Positions 10,418 to 28,166 of a DNA stretch of 43,315 nucleotides are shown here, in pieces. The notes under the pieces are model-generated. The model was not told where the DNA came from. It did not search any database and saw only the letters and a list, made by a program, of their open reading frames with translations. Both the position numbers and the translations under genes were made by a program. The stretch lies in sequence record SRR22947725_1621. The stretch is one strand, 5' to 3'. The number at the start of each line of letters is the position of its first letter. The first letter of the stretch is position 1.

Positions 10418-11232
10418 GTGAGGAGGTAAATAGCGACGGTGAGCGGATTGATGACACTGAGGAGGTTGTAGTAAATGAGGCAGATCAGCAGGGCTTCCTG
10501 CTCAAGATTGCAACTGGTGGAATAACTGTCCAAGATTATGTCAAACGTTTAGAAGAAAATGATATTCTAATTGCGATTGATGGCAAGCCATACTTGGATG
10601 GTCCGCAGCGATTGAGAAATACTTTTCTTCAAGAGCATGGTGAAGAATCTAAGTGGCTTTTGACGTTCTATCGTGACGGCATAGTGTTCGATATTCTTAT
10701 TGATCACCCTATTAAAAGTGCATTTGGATACGCCACTGAAGAAGAAACAAAATTTGTGCTGGAAGCGTTCAAAAAACATACGTTCGGCGATTTTCAGAGC
10801 TATGAAAACTATGAAATTTACAGGGACCGAAGAGGGAAATGCGATATTTTAAGTTTCTCCCCAGATCCGCTGGCTTGGATGATCCCACCACTATGGTTGC
10901 TGAAGTATAGACTTTTTCCACCACTTGCTGCTGTGTCAGTGGTATATCTGATCACCTTTGTTATAAATATCTACTTGTTTATTGCTACTGCGATAGTTCT
11001 AGCAATTTATATTAACCGTGCTCAAAATAATTTGATGCGTTCATTTACTATGTTTGACGATAAATACCATTATATGACTATTGCTGGCACCAATGAGCAA
11101 GAGGTCAGTTTGTTGGTCAAAAGAATAGACCCGAAAAACAAGATTAGGTATGAAAAGAACGTCATAAAAAAACGTGTCGACGTTAAGAAAACTATTGAAA
11201 AAACGATTGAACACTCGCGTTCTGAAAATTGA
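10414..11232 (+). CDS. Membrane protein with PDZ-like N-domain and DUF2628-like TM region
   Basis: LEENDILIAIDGKP...LTFYRDG is PDZ-like; AWMIPPLWLLKYRL plus TM helices; ATGA overlap. Confidence 0.55.
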   Translation: MSEEVNSDGERIDDTEEVVVNEADQQGFLLKIATGGITVQDYVKRLEENDILIAIDGKPYLDGPQRLRNTFLQEHGEESKWLLTFYRDGIVFDILIDHPIKSAFGYATEEETKFVLEAFKKHTFGDFQSYENYEIYRDRRGKCDILSFSPDPLAWMIPPLWLLKYRLFPPLAAVSVVYLITFVINIYLFIATAIVLAIYINRAQNNLMRSFTMFDDKYHYMTIAGTNEQEVSLLVKRIDPKNKIRYEKNVIKKRVDVKKTIEKTIEHSRSEN

Positions 11233-11445
11233 CGAATTGAAATGTAGTTCTTCAGGTGTTTAATTTAAGTGATAGAGGATACCTGTCTGCTGATTAGTGA
11301 ATTGATTGTTAGCTCATTAATTACGATGTATCTCTTTTATTTTAGATATTAGTTTAGCAGCCCAGTGATTTATAAAACGGTTTCATAATCGACCTTAGCG
11401 TGTTTAGACTGCGCATTAAGCTAGGCGGAGTGAAGGGATAAATAA

Positions 11446-12210
11446 TTGCAAGCTGTTATTTTTGCTGGTGGACTCGGGACTAGAATTAGCGAAGAGTCTC
11501 ACTTGAGGCCTAAGGTCATGACTGAAATTGCGGGAATGCCGATACTGTGGCACGTTATGAAAATATATAGTAATTTTGGAATTAATGATTTTATTATTTG
11601 CTGTGGATACAAAGGATTTGTAATCAAAGAATATTTCAAAAACTATTCTCTGCATATGTCCGACGTTACTATTAGCCTTGTGCAAAATGATATAACGGTT
11701 CACCGGGATACCTCTGAGCCCTGGAACATCACTTTGATAAATACGGGCGAATTTACTATGACTGGTGGCCGGCTTAAGCGGGTGGAAAAATATATTGATG
11801 GTACATTTTTTTTGACATACGGAGATGGATTATCAGACATTAATATCAATAATTTACTAGAGGAACATCAGCGTCAGGCCCGTGAGGTAACGGTTACAGC
11901 TGTGCAGCCCGAAGGTAGGTTTGGCGCGCTAGGATTGAATAATAACAATGTTGTCTCTTTTAATGAAAAACCGGATGGTGATGGACAGTGGGTTAATGGT
12001 GGCTTTTTTGTTTGTGAGCCAACTGTTTTTGAGAGAATCTCTGGTGATGACATTGCATGGGAAAATGAACCTTTACAGTCATTGGTGAGGGACAAACAGC
12101 TTTCCGTTTATCAGCATAATGGGTTTTGGGCTCCTTTGGACACTTTGCGCGATAAAGTACGACTCGAAAAACTGTGGGCTGATCAGGCAGCTCCATGGAA
12201 AGTTTGGTAA
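11446..12210 (+). CDS. rfbF: Glucose-1-phosphate cytidylyltransferase
   Basis: AGGLGTRISEES..RPK, TMTGGRLKR, LTYGDG, GFW..LDTLRDK, APWKVW. Confidence 0.96.
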   Translation: MQAVIFAGGLGTRISEESHLRPKVMTEIAGMPILWHVMKIYSNFGINDFIICCGYKGFVIKEYFKNYSLHMSDVTISLVQNDITVHRDTSEPWNITLINTGEFTMTGGRLKRVEKYIDGTFFLTYGDGLSDININNLLEEHQRQAREVTVTAVQPEGRFGALGLNNNNVVSFNEKPDGDGQWVNGGFFVCEPTVFERISGDDIAWENEPLQSLVRDKQLSVYQHNGFWAPLDTLRDKVRLEKLWADQAAPWKVW

Positions 12211-12211
12211 T

Positions 12212-13249
12212 TTGGGTTTCTGGAAAAATAGACACGTACTTATTACGGGCCATACTGGCTTTAAAGGTTCCTGGATGTGCGAGTTGCTTCTTAGTAAAGG
12301 AGCCATCTTACACGGATTAGCGTTGGCGCCCACTGAAAAATTGAGTCTTTTTGATCAGTTGAAATTAGCCGATCGTTTGGATCATGCTATCGTTGATTTA
12401 TGTGATGAAACGGCAGTCACCGAAAGGGTAAATTCGTGCAAGCCAAGCGTTGTATTTCATCTGGCAGCACAATCGCTTGTAAAAAAATCCTATAAAGATC
12501 CTGTAGCAACCTGGATGGTCAATGTTATGGGATCGATGCATCTGATGTCCGCAGTTAGCCAATTAAAACGCCCAGTATCTGTAGTAATGGTTACTACGGA
12601 TAAAGTTTATGAAAATTTAGAAAGCCACCATTCCTATTGCGAGACTGACCGCCTAGGTGGGTGGGATCCTTATGCTGCTTCTAAAGCCGCAGTAGAGATA
12701 GCGGTGAGTAGTTGGCGACGAAGTTTTTCTGGCATAAATATAGCAACTGTACGGGCAGGGAACGTTATTGGTGGAGGCGACTGGGCCGAAAATAGAATTG
12801 TGCCAGATCTAGCCAGGAGCTTCGCAAAAAAAGAAGTGTTGCTAGTTAGGAATCCAGAATCAACGCGGCCTTTTCAGCATGTCTTGGATCCGTTAGCTGG
12901 ATACCTGCTGTTGGGGGAGAAACTTTCTACTGGAGACCGGTCTTGGCAATGTGCGTTTAATTTCGGCCCTAATTTAGCTGAGGTTTGTTCTGTAAAAAAT
13001 CTTGTTGAAACTGCTATCAAAATTTGGCCAGGAAAGTGGAGCGAGGTTTTGACTTTAGACGTCTATCAAGAGTCCGATCATCTATCACTAGATTCCCGCA
13101 AGGCAAATCAAGAACTTGGTTGGTACCCACATTGGAACATGCACCGTAGTATCGCCGAAACGGTGAGATGGTATAAGGAGTTCAGTGAGGGGGCTGATCC
13201 GTCTGATCTTATACAGTCGCAACTCTACAGCCATACAACAAAATCATAA
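12212..13249 (+). CDS. rfbG: CDP-glucose 4,6-dehydratase (TTG start inferred)
   Basis: FW.NR.VLITGHTGFKGSW, HLAAQ, TTDKVY, DPYAASK, RAGNVIGGGDW. Confidence 0.95.
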   Translation: MGFWKNRHVLITGHTGFKGSWMCELLLSKGAILHGLALAPTEKLSLFDQLKLADRLDHAIVDLCDETAVTERVNSCKPSVVFHLAAQSLVKKSYKDPVATWMVNVMGSMHLMSAVSQLKRPVSVVMVTTDKVYENLESHHSYCETDRLGGWDPYAASKAAVEIAVSSWRRSFSGINIATVRAGNVIGGGDWAENRIVPDLARSFAKKEVLLVRNPESTRPFQHVLDPLAGYLLLGEKLSTGDRSWQCAFNFGPNLAEVCSVKNLVETAIKIWPGKWSEVLTLDVYQESDHLSLDSRKANQELGWYPHWNMHRSIAETVRWYKEFSEGADPSDLIQSQLYSHTTKS

Positions 13250-13443
13250 TATTGGAACGAAAGCTAGTATATCAATTTGCACTAATTCCGATTGTTGTAA
13301 TTTGCTATGCTTCTTTAGCTGTTTGGATTGATGTTGGTGAATAAATTTTTATGAAGCTTCGCTGTTAGGTGGAGACAAATATTTTGTTACATTTGTGCTG
13401 CGTTTCAGTTAAACTTTGATAACAAAAGGTTGGTTGCTTGTTT

Positions 13444-14004
13444 ATGGAAATAATAGAAACCTTAATTGCTGATCTAAAGTTAGTTAGGTCAAGGGAATAT
13501 GAAGACTCGAGAGGGACGTTTAGTCGCTCTTACTGCATGCGGGATTTTGAAATATTAATAGGCAGCCGTACACTCAAACAAATTAACCTATCTTTGACTC
13601 ATAAAATAGGAGCAATTCGTGGATTACATTTACAATTGCCGCCTCATTCCGAATTGAAGTTGGTACGGTGTCTAAAAGGAACAGTTTGGGACGTTGCGGT
13701 GGATCTTCGGCAGGGTTCATCGACTTTCTTGCAGTGGCATGCAGAAGAGCTCTCAGAGAAAAATAAACGAGTATTAGTCATACCAGAAGGTTTTGCACAT
13801 GGATTTCAAGTTATGGCGTCAGGGAGCCAACTTTTGTACATGCATACTAACTTTTACGCTCCAGATTTTGAAACTGGTTTCCGCTATGACGATCCACTAC
13901 TAGATATTTCTTGGCCGCTCACTCCATCTGATATTTCGGAAAGAGATCAATCACATTCCTTACTTGATCAAAATTTTAAAGGAATAAATATTGAATTGCC
14001 GTAA
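13444..14004 (+). CDS. NDP-4-keto-6-deoxyhexose 3,5-epimerase (RmlC/RfbC family)
   Basis: DSRG.F, RGLH.Q, DVAVDLR.GS.TF, IPEGFAHGFQ. Confidence 0.93.
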   Translation: MEIIETLIADLKLVRSREYEDSRGTFSRSYCMRDFEILIGSRTLKQINLSLTHKIGAIRGLHLQLPPHSELKLVRCLKGTVWDVAVDLRQGSSTFLQWHAEELSEKNKRVLVIPEGFAHGFQVMASGSQLLYMHTNFYAPDFETGFRYDDPLLDISWPLTPSDISERDQSHSLLDQNFKGINIELP

Positions 14005-15223
14005 TTGTGATAAAATTTTAACTCAAACTGTTTTAGATTTTGGCTGTGCACCACTATCAAATACCTATTTGAATGAGGGCGAACTATCAAAACCCGAGAT
14101 TTATTTCCCACTTAAGATCAGGTTGTGTGATCACTGCTGGCTTGTACAGACAGAAGATTATGTTCAAAAAGAGGCCCTTTTTAATTCTGGTTATGCTTAT
14201 TTCTCCAGCACTTCAAAAAGTTGGCTTGAACATGCTAAGTTGTATGTAAGAAAAATGATATATTTGTTAGAGCTAGATAGTAATAGTTATGTGCTCGAAA
14301 TTGCTTGTAATGACGGTTATTTACTTAAAAATTTCGTTGAAAATGGAATACCATGTTTGGGAGTGGAGCCAACGCAAAGTACTGCTTTAGCCGCTGAGCA
14401 GTTAGGTATCACAGTTGTGAAAGATTTTTTTGATGAAGCGATGGGCGCGCGGTTAGCTAGCGAAACAAGTAAATTTGATCTTGTGATTGGTAAAAATGTT
14501 TTTGCCCATGTGCCCAATATTAGGGATTTTACACGGGGCCTAAAAATAGTATTGAAGCAAGGTGGAGTAATTACTCTTGAATTCCCCCATTTGCTGAAAA
14601 TTTTTGAAAAAAATCAATTTGATACTATTTACCATGAGCATTTTTCATACTTAACTTTGCATGCTGCTCAAACTATTTTTAATCAAGCAGGATTGAAAAT
14701 ATGGAATGTGGAAGAGGTGGAGACTCACGGAGGCAGTCTACGCATCTATGGTTGCCACCAAGAGGATAGTCGGACTATTGATCTGGCTGTCTCAAGGGTG
14801 CTGTCTAATGAAGCACAGATTGGACTTCAAACGAGTTCTGGTTATGAGATGCTTCAAGAAAAAGCCAATAAGTTAAAAAATAATTTTTTAGAATTTCTTT
14901 TAACTCAAAAAAGAAAAGGCAAATTTGTAGTAGGCTATGGAGCCGCCGCCAAAGGAAATACCTTGCTAAATTATGCTGGGATCAAACATGATTTGATAAG
15001 TTGTGTTTTGGACGGCGCCGAAGCAAAGCAAGGAATGTATCTTCCGGGTAGTCATATACCTGTATTTGATCCGCAACATTACGATTGGTCAAAAGTAGAC
15101 AGCGTGATTATTTTTCCTTGGAATATTCGTGACGAAATAGTTCAATTAATTAGACAAAATTTTTCTTCCAAAGCGCGCTTATATACTTTTATACCTGAGT
15201 TTCAGGAGCTTGGAGTTGACTAG
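13991..15223 (+). CDS. SAM-dependent NDP-hexose C-methyltransferase
   Basis: N-terminal Zn motif CRNC...CDHC, EIACNDG, FDTIYHEH, HGGSLR, YGAAAKG. Confidence 0.92.
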   Translation: MNCRNCDKILTQTVLDFGCAPLSNTYLNEGELSKPEIYFPLKIRLCDHCWLVQTEDYVQKEALFNSGYAYFSSTSKSWLEHAKLYVRKMIYLLELDSNSYVLEIACNDGYLLKNFVENGIPCLGVEPTQSTALAAEQLGITVVKDFFDEAMGARLASETSKFDLVIGKNVFAHVPNIRDFTRGLKIVLKQGGVITLEFPHLLKIFEKNQFDTIYHEHFSYLTLHAAQTIFNQAGLKIWNVEEVETHGGSLRIYGCHQEDSRTIDLAVSRVLSNEAQIGLQTSSGYEMLQEKANKLKNNFLEFLLTQKRKGKFVVGYGAAAKGNTLLNYAGIKHDLISCVLDGAEAKQGMYLPGSHIPVFDPQHYDWSKVDSVIIFPWNIRDEIVQLIRQNFSSKARLYTFIPEFQELGVD

Positions 15224-16010
15224 ATTTGTTTTAATTGGTGGTGCTGGCTATATTGGATCGAAGCTTTCAAAAAATCTCGTGCATCATGGTGAAGTAATAA
15301 TTGTCGATCATCGTCCATACGATGATTTGAATGTAGAGCAATTTAAGTTTGATGAATTACTAAGAAACGATCAGCTTCAGCGCTACTTATTTACATCTGA
15401 AACTACTGTGATTAACCTTAAATGGTATACAAATCCCGATGACTATCTTAACAGTAATAAAAACTTAAATTCATTACAAAACTTTATTATAATATCTCTT
15501 TTAACTTATAAAATGAATATTAAAAAAGATATCGGTATAGGTAGCTGTGCTGAATACTCTGTTGAGGGAACAGACAGGAGCGGGCTTTCAACCCAATTAA
15601 AGTCAGAAACATTATATGGATCGGCAAAAATTATCGCCTATCGGTTGTCAAAGCAAATATATGAAGAACGGTCTGAAAAATTTTGTTGGTTGAGGCTGTT
15701 CCACGTATACGAATATGGTCTAAGGAACAGTAAACTTCATGGGGTTATAGAGCGTAGTGTTGAAAAAAATAACCCTATTGAAATCAAACGACCAGAAGAC
15801 ATCTTAGATTTCATTCATGTTCGTGATGCTATCTCATTAATATCTAGCCATATAAGAGGGGCATCTTTTGGGGCACACAATGTCTGCACCGGTATCGGCC
15901 AAAATGTTTTAACCGTAGCAACAACGTACGCGAAAAGTTTAGGTTTTTCTGGTGAGATAGTATGCTTGGAACAACCGTCCAAGCCAATAATAATTGTTGG
16001 AGATTTATAG
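15210..16010 (+). CDS. NAD-dependent epimerase/dehydratase family protein (probable 4-ketoreductase)
   Basis: GGAGYIGS Rossmann motif, GSCAEY, YGSAK (YxxxK), WLRLF.VY, DFIHV.D. Confidence 0.85.
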   Translation: MELTRFVLIGGAGYIGSKLSKNLVHHGEVIIVDHRPYDDLNVEQFKFDELLRNDQLQRYLFTSETTVINLKWYTNPDDYLNSNKNLNSLQNFIIISLLTYKMNIKKDIGIGSCAEYSVEGTDRSGLSTQLKSETLYGSAKIIAYRLSKQIYEERSEKFCWLRLFHVYEYGLRNSKLHGVIERSVEKNNPIEIKRPEDILDFIHVRDAISLISSHIRGASFGAHNVCTGIGQNVLTVATTYAKSLGFSGEIVCLEQPSKPIIIVGDL

Positions 16011-16635
16011 TTTGTATTCAAATTTTTTATCGCAACAGATTACCAATCTTCTTCCTTATTTTAATATAAATGAAGACATTTTGAAAAAATATGAAGCTAA
16101 CGCGGTAACAAGATCGGATAGTTTAATAAAGCGTCTTAAAACAAGAGATAATACTAAATTTAATATTAAGATTTCATGGCATTTAGCTACATTTATTTAT
16201 TGGCTCTCAAGAGAAATTTGGGAAAATGAAGGAAGTATTGATGAATGTGCAGCATTATTTTGTTTAAATAAACTTCTTAACTCAATTGATCTATTTTATG
16301 AAATTGACATGCCAGAAGCCTTTTTCTTAGGGGGGCACACTTCTGGACAAGTCTTTGCCAAAGCTAATTATAAAAATTTTCTTGTTACATATCAAAATTG
16401 TACTATTGGTCGAAATTTAAATGACGCTCCGACATTGGGTAAGTATAATGTTTTCTACCCAGGTTCTTCAGTAATTGGAAATTGCTCGCTAGGAGATAAT
16501 GTAATTTTAGGACCCGGAGTTCAGGTAGTGGATAGGGACGTAGAAGATAATACTATGCTGAAGCTAAATGACAATCACTGCATAGAGAATTATAAATTAC
16601 ACAAAATTCATGCTTTACGGTTTTTTCAGATTTAG
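15994..16635 (+). CDS. Left-handed beta-helix (serine acetyltransferase-like) acyltransferase
   Basis: LFCLNK.LN.IDLFYEI.MP..F...H..G, YQNCTIG, hexapeptide repeats SSVIGNCSLGDNVILG. Confidence 0.8.
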   Translation: MLEIYSLYSNFLSQQITNLLPYFNINEDILKKYEANAVTRSDSLIKRLKTRDNTKFNIKISWHLATFIYWLSREIWENEGSIDECAALFCLNKLLNSIDLFYEIDMPEAFFLGGHTSGQVFAKANYKNFLVTYQNCTIGRNLNDAPTLGKYNVFYPGSSVIGNCSLGDNVILGPGVQVVDRDVEDNTMLKLNDNHCIENYKLHKIHALRFFQI

Positions 16636-16745
16636 TAAATAGATGCCTTACTTTTGGGTTAAAACTAATATAGCCGAACGTACTGTTATGATGATTATAT
16701 TTTTAACTAAATGTTTGGCAGACCACTTGGTTCAGGAAAACACTC

Positions 16746-17000
16746 TGAGCAGCCCCACTTGACTGGTACAATATGGAAGTCATTAGTGTATGACTGGCCT
16801 TTAGTACATCGGTATGATCACCTCTGTTGCCGGTGGTGGACGACTAGGCGTTTTTCGTTCGCACGGCCTTGCGGCAACCGCCGTTATGTGTGGATACTTG
16901 ACTAAAACGTGGCAACCTGGTCGCTCATGTACCTTCACCTGGCTGTTTATATGATTAATGCAGGCGTGTCGACGTTATGGGCTAAGAAGTTTTCCGATGC
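16746..17000 (+). pseudogene. Possible highly degraded IS3-family OrfB fragment
   Basis: GC-richer patch translating as RRFSFARP...VWILD*NVATWSLMYLHLAVYM, reminiscent of the W..D.TYVATW.GF.Y.AFV first-Asp region. Confidence 0.35.
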
Positions 17001-17007
17001 GGCCTCC

Positions 17008-18261
17008 TGAAGTGGTCCTGCTTTTTCGGACAGGTTTGCGGCTTAGCTTGCATCTGGTGTGTGTTCATGCCGCTCTTCGTATCTCTGCGTGGCCGAAGTA
17101 TGCGATGTCTGGTGTTCGCTTATCAAGGGCCGTGTGAGGTCGCTCCGAGTTGTAGAACTCAATTCAGTTATCAATGATCCGTTTTGCTTGGAATCCGTCA
17201 GTAATTTCATTCAGGTAGACGGCCTCCTGTTTCAGCGACCGCCACAACCGCTCAATTAAGATATTGTCGAGGCATCGCCCCCGACCGTCCATTGATATTT
17301 TTATGTCAGCTTTGGTCAAAGTCGTGATCCATCCAGCGACTGTATATTGGCAGCCTTGGTCCATATTCATTATTGCTGGCTTGCCATATCGGGCGGTTGC
17401 ATCCTCCAACGGCTCAACGCAAAAGCTGGCATCCAACGTATTGGAAAGCCGTCAGGTCAAAACCTTACGGGTCGCCCAATCCATGATTGCCACCAGATAC
17501 AGAAAGCCTTTCTTGACAGGGATATAGGTGATGTCGCTGCACCAAACCTAATTGGGTCGCATGATTGCGAGCTTCCTCAGCAGGTATGGATAAATACGGT
17601 GCTGTGGGGGCTTCTTGCTGGTGTTCGGCCCTTTGTAGATGGCCTACAATCCCATGATGTTCATCAGGCAACGAACGCGGTGTCGTCCGGCTGAGAAGCC
17701 AGACTAAGGAAGTTAAGCAGCAATCTGGCGGCTGCCAAAGAACGGGTATTTTGTGAACACCTTATCAATCTCATGCATCAGCTTAAGTGTCTCAGCATTC
17801 ACCCCGACTGGTGCGTAATAGATCGACGAACGGCTGATCTTGAGCCGTTTACACTGACGCGTCAGGCTTAGCTTTGTGTTCTCTTTACGGATCATCTCGC
17901 GGTGTTCAGACGGGCTCATCGCTTTAGCCCTTGTGACAAAAAATCATTCTCCACCGCAAGCTGGCCAATCTTGGCGTGAAGCTCGTTGATCTCGCCGTCT
18001 TTATTCTCGGCCTTTTTGACCTTGTCAGAAAAAACCCCCGCCATACCTTCAATAGCCTGCCGTTTCCACGTGCTCACCTGCGTTGGGTGGAGTTGTCGCT
18101 TGGCTGCGATCTCTTGCACCCGTCTTGTCACCACGCAGCGCCTCAAGCGCCACTGCAGCCTTAAACTGGTCTTAAAAGTTCCGTCGTTTTGTCATTCTCG
18201 TATCCATTCGTTCGGATTGGATATATCTCAACACGCTGTCCGAATTTACCGGACCACTTCA
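17008..18261 (-). mobile_element. Inactive IS3-family insertion sequence (1254 bp)
   Basis: TG...CA ends with IRs TGAAGTGGTCCTGCTTTTTCGGACAG / TGAAGTGGTCCGGTAAATTCGGACAG; OrfA from ATG 18195 has a stop and a frameshift; OrfB broken into several frames; flanks CTCC/CTCT. Confidence 0.92.
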
Positions 18262-18276
18262 CTCTACCTTACACGT

Positions 18277-20835
18277 TTAATTTGGTACTATAATCACTTC
18301 GGGAGGGCGCCCCTTACGATACGTTTCAAAAGCCTGTTCGTACGCGGTTTCTAAATGGTTTGTGTACTTTTGGGTATCGAAAAGTGGTTTTGATAAAAGA
18401 TTATCCGCAAGCTTTCTCTTTATTTCGTCTAACCTTTTAGGGTTTGTAGATAAATCCAAGATAAGAGCTTCATAATCGCTTTCATTTTCAGTAATTAATT
18501 CGGGTAAACCAACAGCATTAAGTAAACTTCCCGCCACTCTGGCAGCAAAATTTTCACCCAACTTTGTAATGATAGGTAAGCCAGCCCATAGAGCATCGCT
18601 TGCCGTGGTATGTGCATTAACATTAAACGTGTCTAAAAACAAATCTGCAAGTCTGTGCCTTGCCAAGTGTTCCGCATGAGGCATTTTTTCAGCAAAAACC
18701 AATCTCTCTGCGTCAATACCTCGTGCAACAGCTTCCCTCTTCATGTTCATCTCTGCCGAACTGTTAGACCTTAATAACCACAAAACACTTCCCTCCACTT
18801 TGTTAAGCAAGCGCATCCAAATATCAAATTCTTTTGGAGTTATTTTATAATTATCATTGAAGCAACAAAAAACAAAACTATCGATCGGCAGCTCAGCTTC
18901 TTCGCGGGTAATTGCCTTATCTGATATGAATCTTTTATTATCATTTGGCTGATAGGAATTGGGCAGGTATATTATTTTCTCGCTATAGTAGTCCCTTTTG
19001 TCTTCAGGTATTAAAACGGGATCAGCGATAAAGTAGTCAATAAACTTTGTACCCAAAGTTCCTGGATACCCAAGATGACTAATCTGCACTGGCGCTAAGC
19101 CATATGCAAAGAGCTCTAATCGATTATCCTCCGTATAACCTTTTAAATCTATTGCCAAATCCAATTTTTCAGATCTAGCCATTTCGACGATTTGTCTATC
19201 GGTCATTTCAGAAACATCGTGAAAAATATTCACATTATTCATTAATTTTTCAGTTATTTCTTTATCTTTATGTACTCCATACGAATAAATAATCACCTCA
19301 AAACGTGCTTTATCGTGTAGTGCAAAAACCTGCGACATTAAAGCCATTGTAGCATGGTCGTAAAAATCTGAGCTGAAGTAACCAACTCGAATGCGTGCGG
19401 TTTTTTGTGATGGCTTATGTTCTAGTTTTAACGCCGTTTGATTAAACCGGAACTTTGCATATAATTCAGCTCGCAAGCGATGTCGTTTTGGTGCGTCCTC
19501 TAAAGGACTAAGCGTGAACGGTGCGATAGTTTCTTTCGAAATTCCCAAATTGGGTAACAGGTGTCTATCTTTTGTGATAGCTCTCCAGTCACAGATCTGG
19601 GCTTGATAAAAAAGCCTTCGCGCTCTGACCATTTCGAGTTCAGGTTTTAGGCGCAATAAGTTCTCAAGATTTTCAATGGCAAGATCATATCTATTTTGGA
19701 TAACATAAATTTCACTTAGGTTGACATAAGCTGCTGTGTAGTCTGATTGAATTTCAATAGCCTTTGAATAAGCGCTAATAGCATCACAAAAATTATCTTG
19801 TTTTCTTAATACATTACCGATGTATTCGTACGCTTGTTGGCAGTCATTCTTGATGAAAATAGCTTTCCTATAATATGAAATAGCCTCGTCTAACTTTAGT
19901 TGGATTTCGAAAGCCTTGCCCATAGTTATATATGCTTCAGCATAATCAGGCTTAATTGCGAGCACTTGTTTGCTGTAGGCTACTGCCTTATCAGCTTTGC
20001 CCAGTTCGAGTTCCAAAAGGCCCAGTGCAAAATATGCTGGGGCAAAATTTGGCCTAAGTTTTATAGTGTTTTTAAAACATTTTATTGCAGCGTCAAAAGA
20101 GCATTTTTCATATAATTCCATCCCTATTTCAAAATATATCTCATATTCGTTTGGTTTAAGTCTAATCGCTTTATTTAGATTTTCTATTGCCTTATCGGTG
20201 TCTCCGTTCGACGTGTATGCCCTGCTTAACATAAGAAAATTTATAGCGGATTTTGGCATATATTTTGTTGCCTTGGTATAATTAGCTATTGCCATTTCCA
20301 TTTGGTCTAATGCGCAATAGCATTGCCCCAAGGCAAAGTGTAATAATGCAGATTTTGGATACGTAACAAGTAAATCTTTGCATTTATCGATCGCAGAAAA
20401 AACCCTTTTTTGATTAATTAATTCATCAATTTCAGAGGTTGTTTGAGGCGAAGGCTCTCTATGCTCTTTATCGATTTTTAGAGATAAGGCTTTCATATCT
20501 TTGCAAAATAAACCAGAGGTTTTGGACGCCACGATTAGTGCTTTCGCTTCGGCAATTCTGTCTAAACCAACGAGTGTCTTTATATAATTTATCCAATACA
20601 AGCCAACGTTTGGGTTTAAATTTAATGCACCTTCGAAAGCTTTAAGAGCATCTATCAGTTCGTTTTGCAAAACAAGCACGCACGCTTTATTGTGAAGAGA
20701 CTTACAATGATCGGGTTTTATGTTTATAATTTCGTCATAAATTTTTATTGCAGTATCAAGGTTCCCAGTTTTCTGTTCTTCGATACCTTTGTTGAAAAGT
20801 GCGGTTACATCGATATCTGTTGTATGCATGTTCAT
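18277..20835 (-). CDS. TPR-repeat GT41 (O-GlcNAc transferase/SPINDLY-like) glycosyltransferase
   Basis: Roughly ten TPR-like units, then RVGYFSSDF.DH, DL.GYT, APVQ..LGYPGT, FCCFN..YKI, DLFLDT...NAHTTASDALWAG. Confidence 0.93.
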   Translation of the reverse strand: MNMHTTDIDVTALFNKGIEEQKTGNLDTAIKIYDEIINIKPDHCKSLHNKACVLVLQNELIDALKAFEGALNLNPNVGLYWINYIKTLVGLDRIAEAKALIVASKTSGLFCKDMKALSLKIDKEHREPSPQTTSEIDELINQKRVFSAIDKCKDLLVTYPKSALLHFALGQCYCALDQMEMAIANYTKATKYMPKSAINFLMLSRAYTSNGDTDKAIENLNKAIRLKPNEYEIYFEIGMELYEKCSFDAAIKCFKNTIKLRPNFAPAYFALGLLELELGKADKAVAYSKQVLAIKPDYAEAYITMGKAFEIQLKLDEAISYYRKAIFIKNDCQQAYEYIGNVLRKQDNFCDAISAYSKAIEIQSDYTAAYVNLSEIYVIQNRYDLAIENLENLLRLKPELEMVRARRLFYQAQICDWRAITKDRHLLPNLGISKETIAPFTLSPLEDAPKRHRLRAELYAKFRFNQTALKLEHKPSQKTARIRVGYFSSDFYDHATMALMSQVFALHDKARFEVIIYSYGVHKDKEITEKLMNNVNIFHDVSEMTDRQIVEMARSEKLDLAIDLKGYTEDNRLELFAYGLAPVQISHLGYPGTLGTKFIDYFIADPVLIPEDKRDYYSEKIIYLPNSYQPNDNKRFISDKAITREEAELPIDSFVFCCFNDNYKITPKEFDIWMRLLNKVEGSVLWLLRSNSSAEMNMKREAVARGIDAERLVFAEKMPHAEHLARHRLADLFLDTFNVNAHTTASDALWAGLPIITKLGENFAARVAGSLLNAVGLPELITENESDYEALILDLSTNPKRLDEIKRKLADNLLSKPLFDTQKYTNHLETAYEQAFETYRKGRPPEVIIVPN

Positions 20836-21092
20836 GATTCAACCCTAAGCTATGTGCATTAATGAGCTCGGAGCAAATTTTACGCCAACTGGTCTAGGGC
20901 CAGTCCTGAAAACTTTATATTTTTAAATTAACTATCTAAAAAAATATTTAAATTTTTTTGTTCTGAAGCTAGTTAGTGTTTGGGCTATCAATGAGAGCGA
21001 AATAATTTAGAGAAATGTAAGAAGCATAGATAAACTAATCTTTAGCTAAAAATTGGCGCTGTGAATTTGGTAAAACTTTTTTTAGGGAGGCA

Positions 21093-21229
21093 ACGGCAAG
21101 GTAACGAAGAAATAGAGTGAAGAGGACATCCTGAGGTTACTGCGCAAAATTGATATTCATTCTAATGCAGTTATGGATATGTTAAGTGTCTGCCGGACTG
21201 CGGATATTTCTGACAAGATGTATCTATGA
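21093..21229 (+). pseudogene. IS3-family (IS407-group-like) OrfA 5' remnant
   Basis: GGAGG RBS, decayed start (ACG GCA AGG TAA CGA) then SEEDILRLLRKIDIH...DMLSVCRTADISDKMY, an HTH-like OrfA start. Confidence 0.65.
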
Positions 21230-21358
21230 GCATTTCCACAAATGTAAATTTGAGTTTGAGTAATTCTTGAAATATCAGTATTTTTATCCAAATTTATTTC
21301 CAGCCTAGAGTACTTACAAATGCGTTTTCCAGATTTAAAATCTTAAACACATCTTTAC

Positions 21359-22582
21359 CTAAAGGAATTTGTTTAAAAGACGGGTTTCATTCCAAACCTC
21401 GTTATCTCGCATCTTTTCTATCTTAAAATCCACATTGTTAAAATCACCTTGAAACAGTAAAATAGCATGATTGTGTATTCCTTTAGAATACGTTTTATTA
21501 ATGACAATCTTCAAACCAGAATTTTCTTTGACTTTCAATACGAATTCTTCTTCGAACTCACCCACTAAAACAATACTGCTTTTGTTATTCAAAACACGTT
21601 CGTTATTACAAAGATACCATATAGCAGCTTCTGTCCGGATGTAGTCGTAGCTTACGGGCAGTTGTTCTTTTTTCCCTAGACCGCATAGACGTGCAGCTAA
21701 ATAGTAATTCTCAATTGGATTGCGATTATTAAGAATTCTCATTTTAAGTCCAACGATCATTCTATCAGCGACAAACTCTTGAATTCTGTTTTTAAAGTTT
21801 GAAAATTCCTCTTCATCGCAGGTGGCTAAAGCGCGCCCTAATAGATATTCCATTCCCCCCCTGTAAACGTCCCACGCATGCTCAACCTCCAAGTTCCCCG
21901 CCTGCTCAAGTTTTTCATCTTCAAAATATTGTATGGATGCATAATAAAAGGGCTTTCTCATAATCAAAACTTGTCCAACAGAGATCCATTCTGCGGGTAT
22001 AGTAAAAGACCAGTACGCAATTTCGCTATATCCCCTTCGGAGTTCCTGGTAATAGCTATTCCGGAAAATACTGATCTCTAAAAAAATATGATGATTTAGG
22101 ATTGTGCTCAATAGATTTTTGTAATCTCCTTGATCGAATACCAAGTCCGTAGGAACTTCATAAAATTGTTGGTTAGACGCTTTATTTTGCAATCTAATAA
22201 GCTTCCATGGCGCATAAAGGACTGCTGCTTCTGGATTGCGTATTAACATTAAAATTGCATCAGCTAAGCCATCGCAATCTAAAAAATCATCATCAGCAAG
22301 ATACATTGAAAATATGCCTGATGCGTTTGCGAATGCATCTTCTAAACTTCTTGCAGAGCCTATGTTATTTGCTTGTTTTATATATAAAATAGGGAGTTTT
22401 TTTGACCACGACTCAACCACTGCGTCGGTGTCATCACTTGAAGCGTTATTTGAAATAATCAGCTCATAACTGAAAGGAAAATTTGAAAACTCATTATAAA
22501 TATCGTTTAGTAAAATTTGAAGACATTTAGCCCTATTGTAAGTCGGGATACAAATAGAGATTACTAATGGCTTGTTCTGCAA
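21359..22582 (-). CDS. GT2-family glycosyltransferase with long C-terminal extension
   Basis: SICIPTYNRA, ELIISNNASSDDT, NIG, LADDD. Confidence 0.9.
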   Translation of the reverse strand: MQNKPLVISICIPTYNRAKCLQILLNDIYNEFSNFPFSYELIISNNASSDDTDAVVESWSKKLPILYIKQANNIGSARSLEDAFANASGIFSMYLADDDFLDCDGLADAILMLIRNPEAAVLYAPWKLIRLQNKASNQQFYEVPTDLVFDQGDYKNLLSTILNHHIFLEISIFRNSYYQELRRGYSEIAYWSFTIPAEWISVGQVLIMRKPFYYASIQYFEDEKLEQAGNLEVEHAWDVYRGGMEYLLGRALATCDEEEFSNFKNRIQEFVADRMIVGLKMRILNNRNPIENYYLAARLCGLGKKEQLPVSYDYIRTEAAIWYLCNNERVLNNKSSIVLVGEFEEEFVLKVKENSGLKIVINKTYSKGIHNHAILLFQGDFNNVDFKIEKMRDNEVWNETRLLNKFL

Positions 22583-22817
22583 TATTTCATTCTCCGCCGG
22601 TCGAAACTTGACTATGATATTGAGCTGACGTTAAACCTTTGTTACTCTTGACTTCAACAACATTCTTAATTTGGTTCCAAAGCTTTTATCTCGCTAGATA
22701 AAATTTGCGTGAGGCTGCCATGACTACTTGTAACCCAGAATAATAACTACACTTGTCATTTAACACTCTAAGATTAGCACACAGGTACTCTGTTAATAGT
22801 GATGCCATATTATCCCT

Positions 22818-22947
22818 ATTTCCCTGAAGCCTTAGTACTATTATTTTTCGAGTATAAGATCAGATACAGTCCGTTTCAAACGCGCGTTATCAGCCTTAAA
22901 GAGCTCTAATCTGTTTCACTGACGGCGTTTGATCTTGCGCTACTCTT
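22818..22947 (-). pseudogene. 3' half of an old IS3-family OrfA split by the adjacent IS
   Basis: Minus strand reads E*RKIKRRQ*NRLELFKADNARLKRTVSDLILEK*, the leucine-zipper end of an IS407-group OrfA. Confidence 0.7.
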
Positions 22948-24207
22948 AGAGGTGGTCCTAGTTTTTCGACCACTTTGCAGCCTAGCTAAGGTGGATCAGG
23001 GTTTCATGTCAGGCTGCTAATCTCATGGGTTCTGTTTTTCTGGCGTAGGCCTCATCGGGGGTCAAGATGCCGTGTGTCGAGTGTGGTCGCTCGGCATTGT
23101 AGTATTCCAGCCATTTGCGGATACCAGCCTTTGCCTCTGAACCTCTTTCAAAAGCGTGAAGGTAGACGCATTCGTACTTCAGAGATCGCCAAAGACGCTC
23201 GATCATGCGGTTGTCGATTCAGCGCCCCTTGCCATCCATGCTGATTTTGACCTTCGCGTCCGCCAGCACGTCGATCCAGACGCCACTGGTAAACTGGCTA
23301 CCCTGATCGGTGTTGAATATCTCTGGCGTGCCGTGTTTTGCCAGCGCATCTTTCAAGGCCTCAACGCAGAACTCCGCGTCCATGCTGTTGGACAGCCGCC
23401 ACGCCAAGATCTTGCGACTGTACCAGTCCATGATTGCCACGAGATACAGGAAGCCACGCCGCATCGGGATATAAGTGATATCCGCGCACCAGACCTGGTT
23501 CGGCCGGTCGATCACCACATTCCTCAGCAGATAGGGCCAGATCTTATGCTGCGGGTGCTTCTTGCTGGTGTTGGGTTCCTGATAGATCGGCACCAACCGC
23601 ATGAGGCGCATCAATCGCCGGACACGATGACGACCGCATTTGTGATCGTTTCGCTTCATGTATCGGGCCATCTGTCTTGACCCGTACCACGGCGTCTCCA
23701 GGAACTGCTTATCGATGATCTCCATGAACCGCAGGTTCTCTGCACTCTCGCCCTTCGGCTGATAATACAGGTTCGAACGGGACAACGTGAGCAGCGCGCA
23801 TTGACGACGCACGCTCAGCTTGTGATCCTTACTCACCATTTTTTGCCTCGCGTCCCGAGCAACTAGTGCGAGGCATCGGCCAAAAAATCTCGCTCCACCA
23901 CCAGCTGGCCAATCTTCGAATGCAGCTTCTCGATATCGGCAGCGCTCGGTGTGTCTGGCGCGCGACCTCGTCGCTCAAACGCGGACGACATGTTATCAAG
24001 CGCAGCACGCTTCCAAGTACTGATCTGATTGGCATGTACGCCATACTTCTTCGCCAACTCCGAAAGGGTCAGCTCTTCGCGGATCGCTTCAACCGCTACT
24101 CGCGCCTTGAAATCCGCAGAATGGTTCTTTCGCTTCTTCATCTTGGATCGTCTTTCTCTTCAGTCGATCCACCTTAACAACTGGTCCGAAATCCCGCGAC
24201 CACCTCT
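22948..24207 (-). mobile_element. Full-length IS3-family IS (1260 bp) with nonsense mutations
   Basis: IRs AGAGGTGGTCCTAGTTTTTCGACCA / AGAGGTGGTCGCGGGATTTCGGACCA; 4-bp direct repeat TCTT at 22944-22947 and 24208-24211; OrfA from 24141, OrfB 23839-23009 DDE interrupted by TGA at 23219-23221. Confidence 0.95.
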
Positions 24208-24351
24208 TCTTTATGCCTATTACAAGACGTCTGAATTGCGATACCAATTTGATGATCTGCACCCGTTAGTGGCCCATCTTGACCTTGCAGTACTTCAGTA
24301 GCGCAACTTTTAAGCACTATATCGTGGGGTTATTTTTGTTTTCAACCGCAT
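24208..24351 (-). pseudogene. 5' half of the old IS3-family OrfA split by the adjacent IS
   Basis: Minus strand reads DIVLKSCATEVLQGQDGPLTGADHQIGIAIQTSCNRHKE and joins in frame with 22947 after removing the IS and one TCTT copy. Confidence 0.7.
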
Positions 24352-24536
24352 GCATAAGCCATCCTGCAATGGGGATCTACCTGTCCCATTTAGTTGTTCA
24401 ATGAAAAAAGTTTTTCTAATGGATTAAAGTCTCATTAAAATGTCTGCCTCTTCACCAATACATGAGTTTTTATATTTATTACAGTAATTTAAGATTTATG
24501 ATTGAAGATTTAAACTCCCTGTAGTTAGTAACTCTA

Positions 24537-26000
24537 TTAAAGTATTCCTGACAGTTTACTTTGGCGCTTTCGCATGAAAGATGCAGGGATATTTTGCACT
24601 TTCCGATATTTTGCTACCGTGCGGCGTGCAACGTTAATTCCTTTAGACTTCAAGGTCTCCACGATTTCATCATCGCTTATCGGGTTTTGTGGCTGTTCGC
24701 TTTCAATCAATTTTTTGATTTTGAATTTTACTGCCGCAGAAGATTGTATAGTTTGGTCATCATTTAGTGCCAAACTTACACTAAAAAAAGATTTGAGCTC
24801 CAAGGTTCCCTGCGGTGTTTCCATCAAAGAGCCCGTCGTTACTCTGCTTATTGTACTTTCGTGCAAATCCACCGCATCAGCGACATCGCGGAGTATCATT
24901 GGTTGAATATAATTTGGCCCTTTTTCTAGAAACGCTGTTTGCCTCTTAGCAATCTCAGCGCCCACACGAAGCATCGTGTCGTTTCGCTTCTGCAGAGCAT
25001 TTTTTAACCAGTTTGCTTCAGCAATTTTTTCTTTTATGAATTCTTTTTGTTCATCGTCCATTTTGGATTTTCGAACAGTTTTTGCATATGTCTTGTTAAT
25101 TGAAATACTCGGCAGTGTAGACCTGTTCAGGGTCACCAGCCAGCCGTCATCTTTTTTTGTAATTTTCAAGTCAGGCTCTCTTATATTGATTGCTTCTGAA
25201 GAGAATTGAAGGCCGGGCTTGGGATCGAAACTTTTAATTATTTTTAATTTTTCGGCAAGCTCTAGGTCACAACAACCGCAGCGGCGTTTAAGTAAATCAA
25301 ATTTACCACTGCCCAGTAGATGCAAATTGTCTAAAATATTTTCGAGTGTTTGGTCTAACATTGTCCTATCTTTGGCCTGCAGCTTCAAGCATTCCGCCAA
25401 AGTTCCTGCAAACAATCCGGCAGGCTCAATCATCTGTAGTTTCTCTAGAACATTCTCCGCGACTTTCAGGTCCACCGAAGTCTGGTCAGCCACATTTTTT
25501 GCGGTCACACCCACCCAGCCAGTGGGCTCCAATTCCTCTAAAAATTTGTAGGCCACGATTTGTTCTTGCTGAGTGAAGTCTAGGCTAGCTATGTAGTCTC
25601 CGCAGTGTACATAAAGTGATTTATCATGTGATTTTAATAATTGAACAGGATCAAAATCGGTTTGTTCTCTTGACACTGTACTCTTAGTTTTGAAGCTATC
25701 TCCAGTTTCAAACTGGTTCTCTATTTCGGTTTTTGTTTTTTGTTTTTCTGTGCCGAATGGTTTTTCTTCTAGGGTTTTTGTAATTGAAAGAGTTTCAGTA
25801 TGTGCATCATTCGCACGTGAGTTTTTCTCGAGAGTATTTTTATCATTCAATTCGATAAAAGGATTAACAGTAAAGGTATCTTCTATGTATTCGTTGACCT
25901 CTAGGTTCGTCATTTGTAGCAACTTAATCGCTTGCTGTACTTGAGCTGTAAGCAGCAACCCTTGACGCTGTCCTATGCTAATGCTGAAATCAAGTTTCAT
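24537..26000 (-). CDS. rpoN: RNA polymerase sigma-54 factor
   Basis: QQAIKLLQM region I, HESTISR HTH, ARRTVAKYR RpoN box; GGAG RBS before ATG 26000. Confidence 0.97.
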   Translation of the reverse strand: MKLDFSISIGQRQGLLLTAQVQQAIKLLQMTNLEVNEYIEDTFTVNPFIELNDKNTLEKNSRANDAHTETLSITKTLEEKPFGTEKQKTKTEIENQFETGDSFKTKSTVSREQTDFDPVQLLKSHDKSLYVHCGDYIASLDFTQQEQIVAYKFLEELEPTGWVGVTAKNVADQTSVDLKVAENVLEKLQMIEPAGLFAGTLAECLKLQAKDRTMLDQTLENILDNLHLLGSGKFDLLKRRCGCCDLELAEKLKIIKSFDPKPGLQFSSEAINIREPDLKITKKDDGWLVTLNRSTLPSISINKTYAKTVRKSKMDDEQKEFIKEKIAEANWLKNALQKRNDTMLRVGAEIAKRQTAFLEKGPNYIQPMILRDVADAVDLHESTISRVTTGSLMETPQGTLELKSFFSVSLALNDDQTIQSSAAVKFKIKKLIESEQPQNPISDDEIVETLKSKGINVARRTVAKYRKVQNIPASFMRKRQSKLSGIL

Positions 26001-26075
26001 TGGATTCTCCCTCCATGAAGTATTTTTAGCCGTTAACTGAACGGTTGCCAAAAAATATAATTGACAGGTTGGTTG

Positions 26076-26091
26076 TGTCAGAATTTTGACA
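26076..26091. promoter_or_regulatory. Palindromic FleQ-type box between divergent rpoN and flagellin
   Basis: TGTCA-GAATTT-TGACA perfect inverted arms with a 6-nt AT-rich spacer. Confidence 0.6.
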
Positions 26092-26119
26092 ACAATTTAG
26101 AATAGGAAAATTTAATTTC

Positions 26120-26145
26120 TAAACTTTTCTAATTTGAGACGTTTT
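26120..26145 (+). promoter_or_regulatory. Sigma28-like promoter of flagellin
   Basis: TAAA-N14-GACGTTTT; shares a CGTT -10 core with the fliD and flgM upstream sites. Confidence 0.5.
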
Positions 26146-26186
26146 GATTTGTGATGGTTATACATATTCAGTAAAAGGAGAAACAA

Positions 26187-26975
26187 ATGACAAGTATTAA
26201 CGCTGGTGGTGCATTCTACAGAGTTCAAAATGCCATAAATGAAAATTCAGAAAGAGTATCGGCAAGCATGCAGCGTCTGTCGTCTGGTTTACAAAACGTC
26301 GCACCAGGTGATCGGGTAGCTTCTTCGGCTGTGGCTTATGGACAGAAGGCGGAGCTAGCTTCGGTTAAAATTGGTGTTCAAAATGCTACTGAAGCATTGC
26401 AAGCTCTGGAGATGGCGAATAACGCGATATCAAAAATGAGTGAAATGGTTGTTCGGCTTGAAGAGTTAAATGCGCTCGGTAGCAATACATTTAATAGTGC
26501 CGACGACAAAGCTGCAATTGCAGCTGAAGCTGCAAAAATCGTTACTGAGATTTCAAGTACCCAGACTGGAGCCAAGTACAAGGGCATAGCTCTTTTTGGC
26601 ACTTCCACTTCGGTTGGAACAGGTAAAAATAATACCGCTCTATCCGTGACGGCTGGGACTACAATGACAGCAACTATCACAGCAGCGAGTATTCAGGTTG
26701 GTACTTGTGGCGCCGACATTTCTACAACTAAACAGGCCGTTGATGCTTTGCAAATTACTGCTGGAGCTAATTACAATAGAGCAGCGAACGCATTGTCGCA
26801 GTTGAGCAGTTTGCGTGCCGGTTACGCGATTGATGTTGCCTCCAAACTGGACGTAGACTTTGCCGGCGAAACAACTGAGCTCGCTAAAGGTCAAATATTG
26901 GCACAAGCTGGCACTGCGATGTTGGCACAGGCAAACGCTCAGGGACAGGGCATGCTCGCTTTAATCCAGTCGTAG
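26187..26975 (+). CDS. fliC: Flagellin (short, 262 aa)
   Basis: SMQRLSSGL N-terminal D0/D1; DVDFAGETTELAKGQILAQAGTAMLAQAN C-terminus; strong AAGGAG RBS. Confidence 0.93.
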   Translation: MTSINAGGAFYRVQNAINENSERVSASMQRLSSGLQNVAPGDRVASSAVAYGQKAELASVKIGVQNATEALQALEMANNAISKMSEMVVRLEELNALGSNTFNSADDKAAIAAEAAKIVTEISSTQTGAKYKGIALFGTSTSVGTGKNNTALSVTAGTTMTATITAASIQVGTCGADISTTKQAVDALQITAGANYNRAANALSQLSSLRAGYAIDVASKLDVDFAGETTELAKGQILAQAGTAMLAQANAQGQGMLALIQS

Positions 26976-27012
26976 GATTATTGATTCTAGTGCATTAGAC
27001 CAAACCAGGTTG

Positions 27013-27049
27013 AAGTAGCCAAAATAGTGCTTTTGGCTACTTTTTTTTT
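27013..27049 (+). terminator. Rho-independent terminator of flagellin
   Basis: AAGTAGCCAAAA-TAGTGC-TTTTGGCTACTT hairpin followed by a T run. Confidence 0.9.
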
Positions 27050-27093
27050 GGTAAACTTAATATAGAGTAGGGTTTAAGCGGGAGGGGGACTCT

Positions 27094-27692: not shown

Positions 27693-28166
27693 TTAGTCTG
27701 CTGACACTAGCAGAACTGGCAAAGATTGGTATGGGAAAAATCTTGAGTATGAGTGGCCAGTCATAAAATTTACTGACCAGAACGTTTTGGGGTTGAGTGT
27801 ATTTTTATCGCTAGTCCAGTAAGCTTCAGGAGATATTTTTGGGAAATATTTTGAATTTATTTTGGGTGCAGTGCACTCTTCACATATGAGGCTCTCCAGC
27901 TCTTGCCGGGTCGGCAGCCTCCAGTTGCCTCCAAGTTGTCGTTTTGCTTCGCTTATGGCATACTCGACTTGGGCATGGTCAAGTTTAACGATATCGCCAG
28001 TACAGGTGTCGAGTGCTGGATCCCATGCTTGTCCAACCGAGCAGCGCAGCCACGTTGTGCCTGATTGCAGATCTTTTACAGTGTGTTGCCTCGCCATGAA
28101 TTGAGCTGAAGCTTGGCTGGTGAGGTAAATTGTAAAAACAACGAACCCAATAAAACCTCTGTACAT
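27693..28166 (-). CDS. Secreted DUF1566 (Lcl C-terminal) domain protein
   Basis: Signal peptide; TV.D..SG..W.RCS.GQ.W, WRLPT..EL.SL, YWTS, W.VNF. Confidence 0.88.
   Translation of the reverse strand: MYRGFIGFVVFTIYLTSQASAQFMARQHTVKDLQSGTTWLRCSVGQAWDPALDTCTGDIVKLDHAQVEYAISEAKRQLGGNWRLPTRQELESLICEECTAPKINSKYFPKISPEAYWTSDKNTLNPKTFWSVNFMTGHSYSRFFPYQSLPVLLVSAD

Follow-up and report, generated by a model that had tools for sequence, protein, structure and literature searches.

The glycans carried by flagellins shape filament assembly, recognition by phage and grazers, and immune detection. Flagellin transferases of glycosyltransferase family 2 (GT2), such as Fgt of Pseudomonas and similar enzymes, use sugars derived from deoxythymidine diphosphate (dTDP) or uridine diphosphate (UDP), e.g. 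rhamnose and viosamine derivatives. The characterised enzymes of family 41 (GT41; OGT, SPINDLY and NGT) take UDP-N-acetylglucosamine (UDP-GlcNAc), UDP-glucose (UDP-Glc) or guanosine diphosphate (GDP)-fucose as donors. FlmG of Caulobacter crescentus is a bipartite cytoplasmic flagellin O-glycosyltransferase, with an N-terminal tetratricopeptide repeat (TPR) domain proposed to recruit the flagellin substrate and a C-terminal GT-B domain (available portions of PMC7591256). Enterobacterial flagellin glycosylation islands have been divided into 42 types; according to the available portions of their description (De Maayer & Cowan 2016, PMC4875605), which rests on sequence analysis only, GT41 is present in 14 or 15 of these (passages differ), and island type 23, from four Erwinia and Pantoea strains, has glucose-1-phosphate cytidylyltransferase and cytidine diphosphate (CDP)-glucose 4,6-dehydratase. 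Here we describe an island in a stretch of DNA of 43,315 nt (record SRR22947725_1621, the whole of which is called the window below), in which a TPR-GT41 protein and a GT2 enzyme are encoded together with six enzymes of a predicted CDP-linked branched sugar, inside a flagellar gene cluster and close to the flagellin gene fliC.

The island is like those of the enterobacteria (PMC4875605, as far as its available portions go) in being a variable insert at a flagellin locus, with glycosyltransferases and sugar genes and the hallmarks of horizontal transfer. It differs in pairing GT41 with GT2, where each enterobacterial island has one glycosyltransferase family, in having an unfused TPR-GT41, where nearly all the enterobacterial GT41s are fused to a methyltransferase domain, and in belonging to a marine alphaproteobacterium. 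The term C-methyltransferase does not occur in the supplementary table of that paper. A preliminary description of the window had proposed either that GT41 primes flagellin and GT2 adds the CDP-derived sugar, or that GT41 uses the CDP-sugar directly, and held that neither route had been described. This was too strong, as GT41 and CDP-glucose genes were already known in flagellin islands from the 2016 bioinformatics, again going by the available portions. FlmG works in the NeuB pseudaminic acid pathway (PMC7591256, available portions), whereas no Maf-type transferase and no family of pseudaminic or legionaminic acid synthesis is found among the Pfam and NCBIfam matches in the window. The locus is like that of FlmQ in Burkholderia (available portions of PMC4462625) in having a dedicated cytoplasmic transferase beside flagellin genes and 6-deoxy or dideoxy sugars. 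In Synechococcus elongatus the OGT homologue Ogt is needed for glycosylation of pilin, a surface filament subunit; the target is thus pilin and not flagellin, and the abstract mentions no linked CDP-sugar genes (bioRxiv 10.1101/2021.07.06.449578).

The locus described here is probably a horizontally exchanged flagellin O-glycosylation island in which GT41 and GT2 would act on flagellin with a CDP-derived branched sugar, a reading that we prefer with some reserve. Comparative genomics gives good support to flagellin glycosylation as such; the detailed mechanism set out below is a proposal. By its position, its glycosyltransferase and nucleotide-sugar genes unaccompanied by export genes, and its variability between strains, the locus would be classed as a flagellin glycosylation island. 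The positions of all features are collected in Table 1.

The eight sugar genes are all intact open reading frames (ORFs) inside the flagellar cluster, from 11446 to 22582 of the window, next to rpoN and fliC as the preliminary description had placed them. RfbF and RfbG are both equivalog-level matches to enzymes of the CDP-hexose pathway. In the rfbG ORF the match to the model starts at residue 34, so the true start probably lies near 12218. The S-adenosylmethionine (SAM)-dependent C-methyltransferase matches solved 3-C-methyltransferases over its full length (E values from 4e-66 to 1e-58; 4rv9, 4.4e-66; TcaB9, 3ndi, 4.7e-59; and 5t64), and by its zinc-binding N-terminal domain, its SAM domain, its C-terminal domain and this similarity is assigned to the TylC3/TcaB9/KijD1 type, with a predicted regiochemistry. 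It occupies the place where CDP-3,6-dideoxyhexose pathways have the enzymes of C-3 deoxygenation. None of these (RfbH/E1 type, i.e. a pyridoxal phosphate-dependent DegT/E1-type protein) is present in the island, so that the pathway is not of the CDP-3,6-dideoxyhexose kind. The short-chain reductase would act as the 4-ketoreductase, and its homologues come after the C-methyltransferase and GT2 in genome G294 and in loci L167 and L265. The hexapeptide-repeat protein would O-acylate the sugar; homologues stand at the equivalent position in L167 (123 bits) and L267 (136 bits). Among the 46 ORFs of the window scanned against Pfam and NCBIfam no flippase, polymerase or ABC (ATP-binding cassette) exporter family is matched, in agreement with the preliminary description, and the same scans find no initiating transferase in the island.

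The genomic distribution of the GT2 subfamily supports a genetic tie to CDP-C-methyl-sugar genes. In a class-wide sample of 401 genomes a single full-length relative was found, in G294, where the order is rfbF, rmlC, C-methyltransferase, GT2, reductase, O-methyltransferase, and where neither GT41 nor a flagellar gene lies near the cassette. GT2 with CDP-C-methyl-sugar genes and without GT41 recurs in G089, G852 and L159. A metagenome scan with the GT2 alignment gave 80 loci, 18 of them matching over most of the length; nine of the 18 have CDP-pathway genes, six flagellar genes and three GT41, eight being contigs shorter than 9 kb and two (L161 and L162) looking like one sequence filed twice. 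A phylum-wide sample has GT2 matches in 25 of 401 genomes, at 34 places; the 18 places examined include six with CDP-pathway genes and four with flagellin. Flagellar genes are therefore present at 10 of 36 GT2 loci, compared with ~1 in 100 by chance on our rough estimate, made for 20 kb taken at random from a genome of 4 Mb that has between one and three flagellin loci. The GT2 model (mean predicted local distance difference test score, pLDDT, 88.5) has a GT-A fold, and the DDD motif (D97-D98-D99) is invariant in 11 homologues, with conservation extending over the full length; on this modelled fold and its DxD motif the protein is a predicted GT-A enzyme. Foldseek matches the model to TarS, RmlT, SpsA and CgT (E from 5e-13 to 1e-10), which are generic GT-A relatives, and gives no informative match for the C-terminal region.

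The full set of GT41, GT2 and CDP-sugar genes stands beside flagellin genes again at two loci. L167 (G+C content, GC, 0.61) reads flagellin, GT41, fliP, GT2, rfbF, rfbG, rmlC, C-methyltransferase, reductase, acyltransferase, the six sugar genes being in the same order as in the window; the N-terminus of its flagellin we take to be of alphaproteobacterial type. In G971 (L265) flgI, an unassigned ORF, a CmcI-type O-methyltransferase, reductase, C-methyltransferase, rmlC, rfbG, rfbF, GT2, fliP and GT41 are followed by four flagellin ORFs, the last of which is represented by its start alone. Here the O-methyltransferase stands in for the acyltransferase of the window. The complete flagellins are ~420–440 aa long, so the minimal flagellin that the preliminary description had made a feature of the system is not essential to it. 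These two loci show that the linkage of the set to flagellin recurs far from the window lineage, apparently in a distant alphaproteobacterium. Their GT41s are themselves distant from that of the window (~250 bits, versus 500–650 for the marine group), and the association of flagellin, GT41, GT2 and CDP genes would thus be either old or assembled more than once.

The two transferases are also found joined. Matches to the GT2 profile lie inside open frames of 1,248–1,400 aa at 11 places in a single genus, which belongs to another class. All five of the large fused frames examined (L271, L272 and L276–L278; 1,299–1,364 aa) carry a GT41 match, and for two of the three fused ORFs scanned Pfam places TPR, GT41 and GT2 in a single protein. 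The existence of such fused TPR-GT41-GT2 proteins supports a functional coupling of GT41 and GT2. Within 10 kb of the five fused loci no flagellin or CDP-pathway gene was found, except for an rmlC-like match in L276. A variant island of a relative (L157, 151–12631; GC 0.42) has a GT41 that is 74% and a GT2 that is 71% identical to those of the window, and sugar genes that are just 52–54% identical. The ratio of non-synonymous to synonymous substitution rates (dN/dS) in this comparison is 0.24 for GT41 and 0.19 for GT2. Since L157 keeps the transferases and diverges in the sugar genes, the transferase pair appears to be the stable core, with the sugar cassette exchanged. In L157 a DegT aminotransferase replaces the reductase, the acyltransferase is a different one and a DDE transposase is inserted; this gene set would yield the branched sugar in an amino form.

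The window GT41 matches human OGT (E 1.6e-119), SPINDLY (3e-77) and XcOGT (3.5e-72) among solved structures. Alignment shows that the catalytic Lys and the His-Thr-Thr/Asp motif of human OGT that binds the nucleotide diphosphate are kept; in what we believe to be the OGT numbering, the kept residues are K842, H558, T560, H901, R904, H920, T921, T922 and D925. Three positions near the sugar differ, and presumably correspond to OGT K898, C917 and Q839, which are His, Val and Asp in the window protein. Among the matches listed, marine TPR-GT41 proteins are 64–66% identical to it in the catalytic domain. The more distant relatives whose context was inspected are mostly without nearby CDP genes. 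Since this is so, and since the nucleotide-binding residues are of the OGT type, the evidence points to a common UDP-sugar as the GT41 donor. Direct use of the CDP-sugar by GT41, the second of the proposed routes, is for the same reasons unlikely. The CDP-sugar is left to GT2, which travels with CDP genes even where GT41 is absent. At L024 (G031:C22, 5707–11505), from the same family of bacteria, 2.6 kb separate a GT41 homologue (40% identical) from a flagellin gene, which also lies near a fliI-like ATPase. L037 (9554–21869), from a Pseudomonadota metagenome-assembled genome, has a double-length GT41, a reductase, a CmcI-type methyltransferase, a radical SAM enzyme, a GT1, an FkbM methyltransferase and a GT2 of the window type, with no flagellar gene in 22 kb.

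The island is variable between close relatives. In a blastn comparison the nearest genome compared, G001, aligns collinearly with the window at 96% as far as 11229 and again from 24525, having ~200 bp in place of the 13.3-kb island. The proteins that flank the island are 94–99% identical in the two genomes. FliC reaches only 62% identity across 148 N-terminal residues and 53% in its C-terminal segment, compared with 97–99% for its neighbours; FliD is 64–80% identical across fragments, and the N-terminus of RpoN 64%. The left-flank gene was found in 8 of 23 species from the genus, and rpoN follows it directly in four other species (G611, G613, G618 and G198), so that the island is absent at this site from these as well as from G001. 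Contigs from RNA libraries, derived from co-occurring strains, depart from the window sequence at 11196 and 24525, at or near the island edges. In four of five close genomes (G001, G611, G613 and G620; 91–99% complete) rfbF is below cut-off and no C-methyltransferase is matched, which suggests that the CDP-sugar is a product of the island and not of the core envelope. The fifth, G618, which is fragmented and 8% contaminated, has four copies of rfbF and three or four of the C-methyltransferase on short contigs; these may be several island variants from mixed strains. Such variability at the site is the pattern expected for a surface under diversifying selection. The absence from relatives, the remnants of two IS3-family insertion sequence (IS) elements and the swapped sugar cassette of L157 together indicate horizontal exchange. 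The preliminary description had missed the two IS3 elements and the absence from G001, and also the Ser/Thr-rich centre of the flagellin.

This central segment of the presumed acceptor (residues 134–183) contains 18 Ser/Thr in 50 residues (36%), compared with 14% in the rest of the protein, and is the most variable part of an alignment of 34 flagellins. The head of GT41 in turn appears local to the lineage. Its first 130 residues align collinearly, starting at residue 1, with the heads of two TPR-sulfotransferases of a sister species, G620, at 50–52% identity; with the heads of its three closest catalytic relatives with collinear heads the identity is only 27–31%. This fits a lineage-specific TPR head that would bring different enzymes to one local substrate. 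The two sulfotransferase genes (PF13469) lie in tandem between the left-flank gene and rpoN (L152, G620:C8, 13864–18774); their frames are broken, possibly by assembly errors. Sulfation of flagellin, or of the glycan on it, may be suspected from this arrangement. In G604 (L282, G604:C203, 1486–2871) a TPR protein with a head 33% identical is encoded directly downstream of the flagellar rpoN, and the contig ends before the catalytic part. Complex prediction with the TPR region of GT41 (residues 1–420) and flagellin gave a score of 0.10 against a mark of 0.34, and bears neither way.

In the mechanism that we propose, glucose-1-phosphate would enter a six-enzyme pathway that ends in a CDP-activated sugar. 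RfbF would form CDP-glucose and RfbG CDP-4-keto-6-deoxyglucose, from which the RmlC-like epimerase, the 3-C-methyltransferase, the reductase and the acyltransferase would generate a 3-C-methyl-6-deoxyhexose, probably O-acylated. The TPR head of GT41 would recruit flagellin in the cytoplasm, and the OGT-like domain would use a common UDP-sugar to glycosylate Ser/Thr in the exposed central part of the protein. The dedicated soluble GT2 would then extend this first sugar with the CDP-derived one. A wider proposal is more tentative, and we would not expect it to hold in full: that the TPR-GT41 primer and GT2 extender put a vinelose-type CDP-derived branched sugar on flagellin, that the system has spread across the Alphaproteobacteria with the two enzymes fused elsewhere, and that the TPR head is an exchangeable flagellin-targeting module that drives sulfotransferases in sister species.

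A number of observations weigh against flagellin glycosylation by this pair of enzymes. Flagellin, detected around loci with profiles built from 10 diverse flagellins, lies near GT41 relatives at only 1 of 79 loci from representative genomes, and at 1 of 12 loci from nine genomes of the same family. The GT2 and CDP cassette of G294, G089, G852 and L159 lies away from flagellar genes, and so is not exclusive to flagella. At five or more flagellin-linked loci (L160, L170, L270, L274 and L275) GT2 occurs with no GT41 in the stretch read, and priming by GT41 is thus not obligatory for the GT2 family. The second IS3 element lies between rpoN and the GT2 gene, whose expression it may have altered. 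A sigma-54-type motif lies upstream of GT41 (Table 1), with two mismatches to the consensus and GG and GC retained, and its conservation in L157, at equal distance before GT41 within a different surrounding sequence, counts in favour of the preferred reading; a single such site is nevertheless weak alone, because the window contains 55 matches to the pattern where 36.6 would be expected at random. RNA-library contigs span the IS copies and intergenic DNA, so that carried-over DNA is possible. The preliminary description is supported in part: the tie of GT2 to CDP genes and the coupling of GT41 with GT2 agree with it, and the order of the two transfers is putative. The GT2-only loci argue for roles that are reversed or parallel, in which GT2 would put the CDP-sugar directly on Ser/Thr of flagellin, and GT41 would add a separate O-linked sugar at other sites or be regulatory or chaperone-like. 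Some members of the GT2 family are moreover proteins of 986–1,033 aa with long N-terminal extensions of their own. We regard this arrangement as rather unlikely, if a serious competitor, for the fused proteins suggest consecutive action on one substrate, the second GT2 of L170 could prime, and at the GT2-only loci a GT41 could lie beyond the 20 kb read.

The flagellar site might instead be a hot spot for insertion and nothing else, with the sugar destined for lipopolysaccharide, capsule or another surface protein. The non-flagellar GT2 cassettes and the rarity of flagellin near GT41 relatives are what this would predict, and the site does take up IS elements and other genes. We think it improbable, given that the island lacks an initiating transferase, flippase, polymerase and exporter, that the full set stands beside flagellin genes in a distant lineage, that flagellar genes accompany GT2 far above the rough chance estimate, and that fliC and fliD co-vary with the island. 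Least credible is that the island is decaying, non-functional cargo between two IS copies. Two degenerate IS3 elements do bracket the GT41-GT2 pair, one of them upstream of the GT2 gene, but the eight ORFs are intact and the dN/dS values are low. Water samples of marine, estuarine and salt-marsh origin also yield the GT41-GT2 stretch, nearly whole and near-identical, in 13 DNA runs (11 studies), and part of it is found in six RNA-library runs of five studies. Contigs from four RNA runs, of four studies, cover 23–27 of 30 bins over 9500–27200 with few differences from the window, which is compatible with transcription of the island; gaps in the coverage of the island by individual RNA runs were given no weight.

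A CDP-activated 6-deoxy-3-C-methyl-2-O-methyl hexose, CDP-vinelose, has been known from Azotobacter vinelandii since the literature of the 1960s. We know of no gene cluster or acceptor for vinelose. A vinelose-type product would be expected of the variant cassettes with a CmcI-type O-methyltransferase (G294, L159 and L265); the window differs in having an acyltransferase in place of the O-methyltransferase. In a literature search with most subscription journals outside it, there was no relevant report on flagellin with 3-C-methyl sugars, nothing on flagellin glycosylation with glucose-1-phosphate cytidylyltransferase, nothing on flagellin together with C-methyltransferase and glycosylation island, and nothing on vinelose. 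Nor was there in the literature searched a report of the CDP carrier or of a C-3-branched 6-deoxyhexose on a flagellum. If the preferred reading is true, a CDP-linked C-branched sugar would for the first time have an acceptor and transferases assigned to it, and GT41 action on flagellin would have its first worked example. The separate and the fused forms would also offer a natural pair in which to study the coupling of two glycosyltransferases that act on a single protein. That GT41 and the sulfotransferases have a TPR head in common may point to a general module that directs modifying enzymes to flagellin. Another branched sugar is suggested at L275 (G723:C155, 6198–17690), where rfbF, a thiamine-diphosphate enzyme, a window-type GT2 and a 288-aa flagellin occur together; we take this gene set to resemble the yersiniose type of two-carbon branched CDP-sugar.

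Table 1. Features of the island and its surroundings (positions in the window)
Feature	Position	Strand	Basis or remark
Two conserved ORFs, family unassigned (269, 272 aa)	9608..11232	+	downstream of flhB; left flank; 94–98% identical in G001
Strain-variable island, 13.3 kb	11230..24524	.	between flhB-downstream genes and rpoN-fliC; absent from G001
rfbF, glucose-1-phosphate cytidylyltransferase (makes CDP-glucose)	11446..12210	+	TIGR02623 412.5 bits, cut-off 300.25
rfbG, CDP-glucose 4,6-dehydratase	12119..13249	+	TIGR02622 417 bits, cut-off 278.45
RmlC-like 3,5-epimerase of 4-keto-6-deoxyhexose	13438..14004	+	PF00908 185.8 bits; TIGR01221 162.3 bits, cut-off 155.75
SAM-dependent sugar 3-C-methyltransferase	13991..15223	+	PF08421, PF13489, PF08484
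Short-chain NAD-dependent reductase/epimerase	15210..16010	+	PF01370 62 bits
Hexapeptide-repeat acyltransferase	15994..16635	+	PF00132 29 bits
Decayed IS3-family element 1	17008..18261	-	26-nt inverted repeats; transposase frames in pieces; GC 0.51
TPR-GT41 protein glycosyltransferase, 852 aa	18277..20835	-	PF13844 293.6 bits (cut-off 25) and many TPR families
Sigma-54-type -24/-12 motif	20873..20887	-	~38 nt upstream of GT41 start codon
GT2-family glycosyltransferase, 407 aa	21359..22582	-	PF00535 57 bits; distinct subfamily with conserved C-terminal region
Decayed IS3-family element 2	22948..24207	-	between rpoN and GT2 gene; NF033516 200 bits; 21-nt inverted repeats
rpoN (sigma-54), right flank of island	24537..26051	-	TIGR02395 369.7 bits
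fliC, 262-aa flagellin, presumed acceptor	26187..26975	+	PF00669 and PF00700
Ser/Thr-rich central flagellin segment, residues 134–183	26586..26735	+	candidate O-glycosylation sites

The two decayed IS3 copies, which differ from each other, lie in the same orientation on either side of the GT41-GT2 pair. Their GC (0.51–0.55, the second having 0.55) is above the 0.35–0.44 around them, and the second has an in-frame stop at 23219. A composite transposon built of the two was considered and rejected: the sole stretch that they share is 58 nt at 78%, both are decayed, and joint mobility is unsupported. In G001 (L006, G001:C4, 4709–12169) and G620 (L152) fliC, rpoN and fliD look frameshifted, which may be either decay of the motility genes or indel errors of assembly.

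The whole 43-kb window is a single flagellar gene cluster, of the rpoN/FlhG/FliA type. The family scan finds fliI, fliK, fliL, fliM, fliN, fliP, fliR and flhB to the left of the island, which starts directly after the second of the two left-flank ORFs; these ORFs have no Pfam or NCBIfam match. To the right follow rpoN, fliC, motA, motB, fliD, a sigma-54 activator, flgM, flgA, flhA, flhG and fliA. At NCBI, FlhA proteins 98–99% identical to that of the window bear the name Planktomarina temperata, as do two flagellins at 60–80% identity to the window flagellin. The host is read, from these protein identities, as a marine member of the Rhodobacteraceae, of the genus-level group of Planktomarina (RCA Roseobacter). 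This group is among the commonest bacteria in temperate seas. The ORF at 39613–40890 (425 aa), where flhF would be expected, has no Pfam match at E 0.001. A sigma-28 pattern has eight matches in the window against 14.8 expected, none of them upstream of fliC or of island genes, and simple sigma-70 and terminator scans are at chance level, except for a strong terminator after fliC. Sigma-54-like sites are also found upstream of fliO, of the left-flank ORFs (9544–9558) and of flhA. Between fliC and motA, at 27693–28166, a small protein with an Lcl_C domain is encoded.

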